A stretch of 64,000 bases of DNA, taken from IMG/VR virus record IMGVR_UViG_3300027763_000040, positions 1 to 64,000 of that record; one strand, given 5' to 3'. Shown here in pieces: positions 19,280 to 51,062 of this stretch (positions within the stretch are counted from its first letter, which is position 1; every line of letters begins with the position of its first letter). This stretch comes from a virus. The notes beneath the pieces are model-generated. The model was not told the DNA's origin and made no database searches. It saw only the letters and a list, made by a program, of their open reading frames with translations. A program made the position numbers and the translations under genes.

Positions 19280-19562
19280 TGCGAGTAGGGAGACTTGAAC
19301 TCCCACGGGCAATGCCCAACAGATTTTCTTACCACTATAGTTTTCACTACCCTTTCGGTTTGTGGTCTGGACTATACCTTCACCATACCTTTCGGTTTAG
19401 GTGTTCCCCGTCTAGTCTCTACACCTTCAAGATTTCTCTTGCTTGGCTCGGTATTGCCATTTTACAGGTTTCACCGAATTTGAGGAATTACACTCATAAA
19501 GTTTCCTAAATGAGGCTCAATTTTCATAAGTCTGGTGTGTCTACCGATTCCACCATACTCGC
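19280..19562 (-). tRNA. trnL: tRNA-Leu(UAA) interrupted by an intron; exons 19562-19528 and 19327-19280
   Basis: 5' exon GCGAGTATGGTGGAATCGGTAGACACACCAGACTT and 3' exon AAAATCTGTTGGGCATTGCCCGTGGGAGTTCAAGTCTCCCTACTCGCA. Perfect 7-bp acceptor stem, long variable arm, spliced anticodon loop CU-UAA-AA. Confidence 0.95.
19328..19527 (-). ncRNA. Group I intron (IC3-like), 200 nt, no ORF
   Basis: Follows exon U and ends in G. Guide GAG pairs with exon CUU. Core elements: P AAATTCGGTGAAACC, Q AATACCGAGCC, R GTAGAGACTAGACGG, S AAGGTATAGTCC; P7 is GACTA/TAGTC. Confidence 0.93.
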
Positions 19563-19602: not shown

Positions 19603-19676
19603 TGCTCCTTGTCGGGATCGAACCGACCTTAGCCGAATTATGAGTTCGGTGCTTTCAACCAGAGAGCTAAAGGAGC
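19603..19676 (-). tRNA. tRNA with CAU anticodon, probably Ile2 (lysidine-modified); elongator Met not excluded
   Basis: GCTCCTT/AAGGAGC acceptor stem, CCGAA-CTCATAA-TTCGG anticodon arm, GGTTCGATCCC T arm. C4-G69 and C5-G68 pairs are TilS-type determinants. Confidence 0.85.
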
Positions 19677-50601: not shown

Positions 50602-50636
50602 ATTTTACATAAAAAAAAGGAGGGTGTCAACCCCCC
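50602..50636 (-). terminator. Intrinsic terminator overlapping a sigma70 promoter
   Basis: GGGGGG-TTGACA-CCCTCC-T8. The loop TTGACA is 17 nt from TAAAAT. Confidence 0.7.
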
Positions 50637-50642
50637 AGTATA

Positions 50643-50756
50643 TTATCGCATTGCCATTACAAGTTTTGCTTGATGCTTGCGTTGTTCTTTTTCCTTTTGC
50701 TGCTTGATTAAAACAAGTTGCCAGTTATTTTTATTTTTCACATTTGCTTGTGACAT
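50643..50756 (-). CDS. 37-aa basic, Gln/Lys-rich peptide downstream of the riboswitch
   Basis: MSQANVKNKNNWQLVLIKQQKEKEQRKHQAKLVMAMR*, with SD AAGGAG at 50765-50770 and a terminator after it. Confidence 0.7.
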   Translation of the reverse strand: MSQANVKNKNNWQLVLIKQQKEKEQRKHQAKLVMAMR

Positions 50757-50788
50757 TAGGTTTTCTCCTTAGTGGTTTAGGTTAAAGA

Positions 50789-51002
50789 GCGTTCCTTCAG
50801 TCGGCGGTTGCGTCTATTTTACACTCTTTGGGAGTAATTTTTTTGATTTCCCAAATTAAATCGTTGCGAGTTTGTGGAGGCATATTTGCCTTCATAACTC
50901 TTCCAATGATTAACTTTGCTTGTAGACAACTAAGTAAGAGTGCTTCCATAGATGAACGATCCGTTCCGCGTCGGCTTACTTCCGACCCTTTCGGGTTGAA
51001 CG
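50789..51002 (-). ncRNA. Glutamine riboswitch-like RNA (glnA motif) with a large internal insertion
   Basis: 5' CGTTCA-ACCC GAAA GGGT-CGGAAGTAAG and 3' CTGAAGGAACGC match the P1, P2 and E-loop elements of the glutamine-I aptamer. Confidence 0.7.
50797..50949 (-). CDS. 50-aa ORF nested in the riboswitch-like RNA
   Basis: MEALLLSCLQAKLIIGRVMKANMPPQTRNDLIWEIKKITPKECKIDATAD*. The track's upstream TTG start lies in the -35 box, so it is unlikely to be used. Confidence 0.55.
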   Translation of the reverse strand: MEALLLSCLQAKLIIGRVMKANMPPQTRNDLIWEIKKITPKECKIDATAD

Positions 51003-51009
51003 TAGAGGT

Positions 51010-51062
51010 ATTATACCCCCATTGCGGGTATTTAGTCAAATAATTCTGTAAAATGTGATACA
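51010..51062 (-). promoter_or_regulatory. Sigma70 promoter with an upstream NtcA-type box and an overlapping late-promoter-like CTAAATA
   Basis: TTGACT-18 nt-TATAAT (51039-51010) and TGTA-N8-TACA at 51047-51062. Confidence 0.7.

Follow-up and report, generated by a model that had tools for sequence, protein, structure and literature searches.

The genome surrounding the element described here is that of a T4-like cyanophage (Kyanoviridae; a record of 98.9 kb), and the window, by which we mean the whole stretch of 64,000 nucleotides that was analysed, carries every part of the element (51002-50789) and all of the neighbouring genes on its minus strand, to which the coordinates below refer unless stated otherwise. 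Ahead of the element lies a strong sigma-70-type promoter (51010-51039) with TTGACT at 51039-51034, an 18-nt spacer and TATAAT at 51015-51010, which agrees with the consensus at 11 of 12 positions; TATAAT boxes also stand 5' of the aptamer at many related loci, and transcription would start a few bases 5' of the aptamer. Further upstream, at 51048-51061, is a perfect NtcA-type box of the form GTA-N8-TAC, GTATCACATTTTAC, whose end is 32 nt upstream of the -10 hexamer. Classical NtcA-activated promoters have this box roughly 22 nt from the -10, so that the spacing here is larger than the classical one, and a good -35 is present as well.

What opens the RNA is a type-1 glutamine aptamer split in two, its 3' half following the 5' half only after a gap of about 190 nt. 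The 5' strand of the outer P1, CGUUC (50998-51002, with A50997 next to it), pairs in the MFE fold with GAACG at 50794-50790, and both strands are invariant across 33 aligned loci. There follow the P2 hairpin ACCC-GAAA-GGGU (50985-50996) and then the junction together with the 5' strand of the E-loop, CGGAAGUA (50977-50984), in which G50983 is the ligand-site G and G50982 the linchpin partner of C50789; these base roles are taken from crystal structures as they are quoted in PMC6212724 and PMC6698751. The 5' strand of P3, AGCCGACG (50969-50976), finds its long-range partner in the 3' strand, CGCCGACU (50806-50799), the final base of which is the U of a UGA stop codon. The 3' strand of the E-loop, GAAG (50795-50798), comes next, and after it the 3' strand of the outer P1 and the linchpin C50789. 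The two E-loop strands, GGAAGUA (50983-50977) and GAAG (50798-50795), thus flank P3 while lying some 180 nt apart.

At the far end of P3 sits a second, inner core. Its P1 is the hairpin GAACG-GAU-CGUUC (50954-50966; GAACG at 50966-50962 and the second CGUUC at 50958-50954), which every predicted fold contains once 55 nt have been transcribed. A local alternative in which the outer CGUUC takes the nearer GAACG as its partner, as had been proposed in the first-pass annotation, is disfavoured at this locus: the nearer GAACG instead pairs with the second CGUUC. The next helix, P2', is made by UCUAU (50948-50952), which includes the A and the U of an AUG, and by AUAGA (50813-50817), the two being paired in the MFE fold, and it is followed by the inner junction J', CGCAAC (50807-50812), in which the ligand-site G of the inner core is G50811 and its linchpin is C50810, with G50961 as partner. 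The CGCA of J' is invariant across loci. The junction at the inner P1 hairpin was itself our search pattern, and its invariance, the base after the inner GAACG included, is therefore fixed by selection. Between the strands of P2' runs an ORF of 50 codons plus UGA (50797-50949), with its AUG at 50949-50947 and its UGA at 50799-50797 within UGAAGG, so that the AUG overlaps UCUAU and the stop falls inside the E-loop strand, both as had been claimed. The final six residues of the product, IDATAD, are encoded by the 3' strand of P2', by J' and by the 3' strand of P3. Each of the elements named beforehand (P1, P2, the junction, P3, UCUAU/AUAGA, the AUG and the UGA) could in this way be placed on the minus strand.

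Directly 3' of the outer P1 lies an anti-Shine-Dalgarno (anti-SD) sequence, CUCUUUA (50783-50789), whose first base is the linchpin C, and which pairs in the folds with the Shine-Dalgarno (SD) sequence of the downstream gene, UAAGGAG (50765-50771). Every predicted fold contains this helix (50789-50783 with 50771-50765), which leaves the SD a probability of 0.02 of being unpaired; the anti-SD is conserved within the class of loci that has a G-C linchpin. The downstream ORF (50643-50756) encodes 37 aa and is a putative short variant of the IF17-like (DUF4278) proteins without the YRG motif. Among the matches listed the downstream product is a YRG-motif protein in 95 of 109 related loci, and the short YRG-less variant occurs in the window and at L066, L072 and L040; what the window's ORF has kept is the basic part alone, LIKQQKEKEQR...AMAMR, corresponding to the C-terminus of the protein of phage S-CREM1. 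Searches of Pfam and PHROGs with the window's own 37-aa product gave 0 matches, and its relatives match DUF4278 at E 7e-4 (DSL-LC02) and phrog_5049/545. The cassette ends at an intrinsic terminator (50611-50636), GGGGGG-UUGACA-CCCUCC and then a U run. This terminator overlaps the next promoter-like site (50602-50636, same strand), whose TTGACA lies in the loop of the terminator and is followed by TAAAAT at a spacing of 17 nt, an overlap consistent with early mini-cassettes placed back to back.

At the gathering threshold an Rfam scan reports no glutamine riboswitch in the window. With permissive settings RF01739 (gathering score 35) is found at 33.0 bits, E 4e-5, for 51004-50958 only, and this sub-threshold match is the single glutamine riboswitch match in the whole 98.9-kb record. 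It is a local reading, in which the first CGUUC is paired with the nearer GAACG and the GAAG strand is absent. The window falls below threshold because of the insert and not because of the core: an ORF-less relative (L013) scores 43.6 bits, and there Rfam picks the outer reading, with a 38-nt insert in P3. In the published annotation of S-CREM1 the element appears as one 99-nt glnA riboswitch of 44 bits. A home-made covariance model, consisting of 33 ORF-less loci, gives in the window a separate 5' match of 42.2 bits and a 3' match of 28.1 bits, and the 140-nt insert between them is not bridged.

A BLAST search against phage genomes recovered the full arrangement in Synechococcus phages DSL-LC02, DSL-LC03 and S-SRM01, and an ORF-less version in S-CREM1. 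Scanning IMG/VR for the 15-base junction GGAACGGAUCGUUCA yielded at least 120 loci; adding the window and the loci of the annotated phages gives 124 matches, in 118 of which the riboswitch 5' half lies upstream. Among the matches listed, two classes can be told apart by how far the 3' half lies from the junction, 23-57 nt in 60 loci (a plain hairpin) and 152-222 nt in 55 loci, and the long, insert-bearing layout is thus that of 55 of the 115 related loci among these matches. This recurrence, with the covariation described below and the Rfam score of the 5' part, sets the layout apart from a chance resemblance. Two reference phages, P-SSM2 and S-SSM7, belong to the long class, and CDSs are annotated there. 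UCUAU/AUAGA can be recognised from the ORF-less loci as the hairpin P2' of the second unit, which reads CGUUCA, hairpin, CGCAAA, GCCGACU, GAAGGAACG. The corresponding scan of genome contigs with the 15-mer was uninformative on hosts, 1 of the 120 matches listed being a real switch and the remainder chance matches.

Does the aptamer close around the insert, as had been proposed? The related loci indicate that it does. We define the linchpin as the third base of CG[G/C]AAGUA in unit 1 paired to the base after the far GAACG; in the crystal structure of a type-1 aptamer, as quoted in PMC6212724, it is the pair G23-C60. Across the insert this pair is G-C in 46 loci, C-G in 69 and mismatched in 0, and hence matched in all 115 loci among the matches listed. 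Both polarities occur within one nested-ORF family, and the matching holds in the short and in the long length class. Moreover, compensatory changes are found in relatives both for P3 and for UCUAU/AUAGA. For the 33 ORF-less loci our pair count gives 94.7% of cells paired, against 84.9% when the partners are shuffled and 31-53% when they are slid, and 14 pairs show changes on both sides (4 of 8 in P3, 6 of 8 in P2' and all 3 counted pairs in P2). The best-supported register of P3 is that of the family, with eight positions of which two are conserved C.A/A.C mismatches. The proposal that P3 is closed by long-range pairing therefore stands, since it covaries, whereas the bulged GCGG/CCGC register suggested along with it does not, given variants whose last pair is U-A or A-U (G-C 11, U-A 8 and A-U 3 across the ORF-less alignment). 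Within the insert-bearing class taken alone P3 shows almost no variation (77% paired versus 75% shuffled). The base stem of P2' in the insert-bearing loci has a mean of 6.56 contiguous pairs, compared with 3.86 (maximum 4.73) when partners are shuffled, and the ORF-enclosing helix appears as UCUAU/AUAGA, UCUCAU/AUGGGA, UCCUC/GAGGA and others.

Nested and swapped pairings of the P1 strands are indistinguishable by covariation, because these strands never vary, and the case for the nested pairing rests on the linchpin, on P3 and on folding energies, which for the window are -64.3 kcal/mol with the nested arrangement, -60.7 side by side and -65.1 unconstrained. The side-by-side arrangement deserves to be weighed in its own right: two independent, partly degenerate aptamers, unit 1 at 51002-50962 and unit 2 at 50958-50790, each with its own P1. 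Rfam does score unit 1 alone (the window, L002) or unit 2 alone (L122, L001, L012) at 33-38 bits, and 157 glutamine doublets have been counted as pseudo-cooperative tandems (PMC9481103). However, if paired locally, the linchpin bases of the window's class would meet as G.G (with G50961) and C.C (with C50789), which cannot pair, and the partners actually observed are always crosswise; unit 1 is without GAAG and unit 2 without GGAAGUA; neither unit has a P3 of its own, and covariation is seen for the long-range one; the 3-nt gap between the units leaves no room for an expression platform; and the side-by-side fold is 3.6 kcal/mol worse. We regard independent tandem aptamers as very improbable at this locus. 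What holds from the tandem alternative is that there are two sensor cores, and what does not is their placement, for the crosswise linchpins have them nested, with P3 common to both. A competing local helix, GUCGG/CCGAC, had also been pointed out; it is present in the window, but it is not conserved, the relatives reading GACGG, and we have dropped it as a real element.

We turn to the gene enclosed by this structure. Among the matches listed, the AUG stands 3-6 nt after CGUUCA in 54 of the 55 long loci, and in 49 of the 55 the ORF ends at a U(G/A)A that overlaps the E-loop strand. The proteins are 49-65 aa long and fall into several divergent groups, with a hydrophobic start and a DAKAD-like C-terminal tail that derives from the riboswitch core; Cys8 and Cys43 are invariant across proteins that are just 20-40% identical. 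For 22 members of the window's group the codon-position entropies are 0.87/0.45/1.26, 99% of pairs have a pN lower than pS, and dN/dS has a median of 0.23. None of the other frames stays open among relatives: each is closed in 43-48 of 48, and this applies also to the antisense frame, which the window happens to have open. A large protein database holds 28 relatives of the nested protein, and AF2 predicts a small helical hairpin with a mean pLDDT of 84. The earlier expectation of a conserved coding sequence is thus upheld by the substitution pattern, the boundaries and the closed frames, and, judged by how the sequence evolves, the nested ORF is a real gene, evolving as a protein.

The opposite reading, that the ORF is never translated and is kept only as structured RNA, could point to the long stems inside the ORF in the MFE fold, to the lack of a clear SD and to a Pfam search that found 0 families. 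Against it stand third codon positions that are the most variable, the excess of synonymous change given above, and lengths and AUG offsets that vary while the same E-loop stop recurs, together with the two invariant cysteines, the closure of the other frames and the confidence of the predicted helical hairpin; we find this reading scarcely credible. Further searches with the nested protein gave a weak match only in PHROGs (phrog_504, E 0.003), generic helical hairpins only with Foldseek against the PDB (E above 1), and eukaryotic matches at chance level in the ESM Atlas.

Two other ORFs at this position were considered and ruled out. One is a plus-strand ORF of 71 aa (50828-51043), the frame of which is closed in 43 of 48 relatives; the other is a TTG-started extension to 80 aa (50797-51039, minus strand), which we reject because the AUG offset varies among loci, the upstream frame therefore not being conserved. 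Gene callers often give the nested protein 64-80 aa by taking a TTG or other start inside the 5' half of the aptamer (P0001, P0004, P0005 and others). These N-terminal extensions are probably a systematic mis-annotation, the riboswitch core being without an in-frame stop.

How does this element relate to known ones? It has in common with the type-1 glutamine riboswitch (RF01739; the Synechocystis gifB/IF17 leader, PMC6212724, and the structure solved by Ren et al. 2015, which that paper quotes) the P1 CGUUC/GAACG, P2, the CGGAAGUA/GAAG E-loop and the G-C linchpin, and the likeness to the gifB/IF17 leader (PMC6212724) extends to an anti-SD directly after P1 and to a small, putatively DUF4278/IF17-related gene downstream. 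The difference lies in P3, which in the window is not a hairpin but pairs at long range, with a second core and a 50-codon gene between its strands, and it is for this reason that the Rfam model stays below threshold here. Tandem glutamine riboswitches, likewise with two aptamer-like units per leader and very common in marine and phage sequences, have been described as independent units standing side by side with their own platforms, and as "pseudo-cooperative" (Sherlock et al. 2022, PMC9481103; Weinberg et al. 2010, PMC2864571). The units in the window, by contrast, share P3, cross their linchpins, are 3 nt apart and have a single platform. In the literature that we searched, from whose coverage Ames and Breaker 2011 fell outside, there is no account of interlocked cores or of a gene inside a glutamine aptamer.

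The inner core bears some likeness to the type-2 glutamine riboswitch (RF01704; PMC6698751), with CGUUCA-hairpin-CGCA, GGAACGG, a C-G long-range pair and no E-loop, and small ORFs occur with both. It differs in being closed by the P1 hairpin loop, in opening into P3 and in having no P2 pseudoknot hairpin, and whereas the peptide ORF of type-2 lies downstream of the aptamer, the ORF in the window lies inside; RF01704 scores 13.9 bits on the window, against a threshold of 33. When its junction is compared with the binding site described in PMC6698751, the inner core is seen to keep the glutamine-contacting bases of the solved structures, CGUUC/GAACG, CGC and C50810-G50961. Because all ligand-contact bases are retained and only the E-loop is missing, the inner core is, on sequence grounds, plausibly a candidate second binding site.

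Two further comparisons are of a more general kind. Some group I introns, for instance that of phage T4 td, carry protein ORFs in their peripheral loops, and translation of these ORFs competes with folding. Here too a structured RNA has a helix that closes over an ORF in a hairpin loop, which makes these introns the closest analogy in kind; the RNA in the window differs from them in being a predicted ligand sensor and not a ribozyme, and its ORF is no homing endonuclease and overlaps the conserved core at both ends. In leader-peptide attenuators and in SD unmasking, a ribosome on a short upstream ORF sets the fold of the downstream RNA. The short ORF in the window differs in its position, within an aptamer of a metabolite-binding class, and in its product, a conserved protein and not a sensor peptide. 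Elsewhere in the window, likewise on the minus strand, Rfam finds a tRNA gene at 19603-19676 (53 bits) and, 65 nt downstream of it, a group I intron at 19346-19537 (62 bits).

Inserted genes are not confined to P2'. Among the matches listed P2 is expanded to about 190-225 nt, with a conserved ORF of 59-69 aa, in 32 of 118 loci; these P2-hosted ORFs start 3-7 nt after CGUUCA, and some of them end at the UAA of the AAGUAAG E-loop strand. Many of the P2-hosted ORFs (L007, L011, L023, L031, L052 and 27 others) have a signal-peptide-like N-terminus, MTKALLLLAWVPLL..., and two cysteines. For the 111 complete loci among the matches listed, the ORF slots are occupied as follows: none in 39, P2' only in 41, P2 only in 20 and both in 11. 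One ORF family sits in P2 at one locus and in P2' at another (L120, L112), and the hairpins therefore behave as exchangeable slots. Since about 35% of the complete loci (39 of 111, among the matches listed) have no ORF, the riboswitch works without one.

This combinatorial occupancy suggests a simple alternative, in which the nested gene is cargo, carried by an insertion-tolerant hairpin loop and served by the early promoter, and its overlaps with the aptamer reflect compaction and not regulation. The movement of one ORF family between the slots fits such a passenger, as do the varied places at which P2 ORFs stop and an expression platform that is unchanged in ORF-less loci. The access of the nested AUG points the same way. 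Ligand binding had been proposed to hide this start codon, and nearest-neighbour models lend the idea no support: the unpaired probability of the AUG is 0.47 whether or not the outer aptamer is forced, so that no ligand-linked change is seen. Against mere carriage, the narrow placement of the AUG after CGUUCA and the stop in the E-loop (54 and 49 of 55 loci, among the matches listed) hold across divergent families, and a translating or terminating ribosome is incompatible with P2', P3 and the outer P1, so that some functional interference is unavoidable if the nested ORF is translated. We think cargo without regulation possible and would not call it likely.

The reading that we prefer, and to which we would give somewhat better than even chances, is that of an early operon leader: a glutamine riboswitch made of two nested cores that share P3 around a real gene, in which folding of the sensor and translation of the gene are mutually exclusive. 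For the downstream output we take our lead from Synechocystis, where in the gifB model glutamine captures the C after P1 and melts the SD-blocking helix, giving an ON switch (PMC6212724). By analogy, glutamine binding at our locus would form the linchpin G50982-C50789, the anti-SD CUCUUUA would then leave the SD UAAGGAG, and the downstream IF17-related peptide would be turned ON. We infer ligand binding, the ON direction and translational coupling at this locus from these likenesses and from the layout of the RNA. A ribosome on the nested gene, for its part, would have to melt P2', J' and the 3' strand of P3, and once it had reached the UGA its footprint would take in the E-loop strand and the outer P1 as well as the linchpin C, with which the anti-SD begins. 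With this footprint lying over the helices of the sensor, sensor folding and nested translation would exclude one another, and disruption of the aptamer by ribosomes would follow from geometry alone. Each termination event may moreover act as a reset of the sensor and leave the downstream SD exposed for a short time; when the bases under a terminating ribosome are blocked in the model, the unpaired probability of the SD rises from 0.02 to 0.55. With a single hairpin closing around a real gene, nitrogen sensing and translation of that gene would therefore compete on one RNA. Taken as a whole, the interpretation offered by the first-pass annotation is partly supported.

One can take the argument further and imagine a two-ligand, two-output device. 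At low glutamine the sensor would be open, the AUG free and the nested gene expressed; at high glutamine the SD would be free and the IF17-like gene expressed; termination in the E-loop would act as the reset; and P2 and P2' would be exchangeable slots for a superfamily of two-cysteine small proteins under nitrogen control. We put this forward tentatively, as a picture that is more likely wrong than right in its full form.

The customary picture of a riboswitch aptamer is that of a compact domain without coding function, and tandem glutamine riboswitches are likened to beads on a string. In the window, the core sequence of a validated aptamer class also supplies the start region of a conserved protein gene, together with its last six codons and its stop, and the cores are interlocked through P3. 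Were the coupling real, it would be a natural case of ribosome traffic and metabolite sensing acting on common helices, and reference phages such as P-SSM2 would be tractable systems in which to study how folding and translation compete kinetically. There is also a practical side, in that standard Rfam scans miss or mis-place such elements, and a biological one, in that small cyanophage proteins of a widespread family may be linked to the nitrogen status of the host.

A last observation concerns the hairpin slots in themselves. A near-invariant hairpin module, UUCGCUAU-loop-AUAGCGAA, occupies, among the matches listed, the P2' slot in 28 loci (for example L001, L012 and L019) and the P2 slot in 10 (for example L003, L017 and L021), while its flanks vary. 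Such constancy of sequence in two different slots suggests that the module serves some purpose in its own right, perhaps as a protein site or in a tertiary contact.
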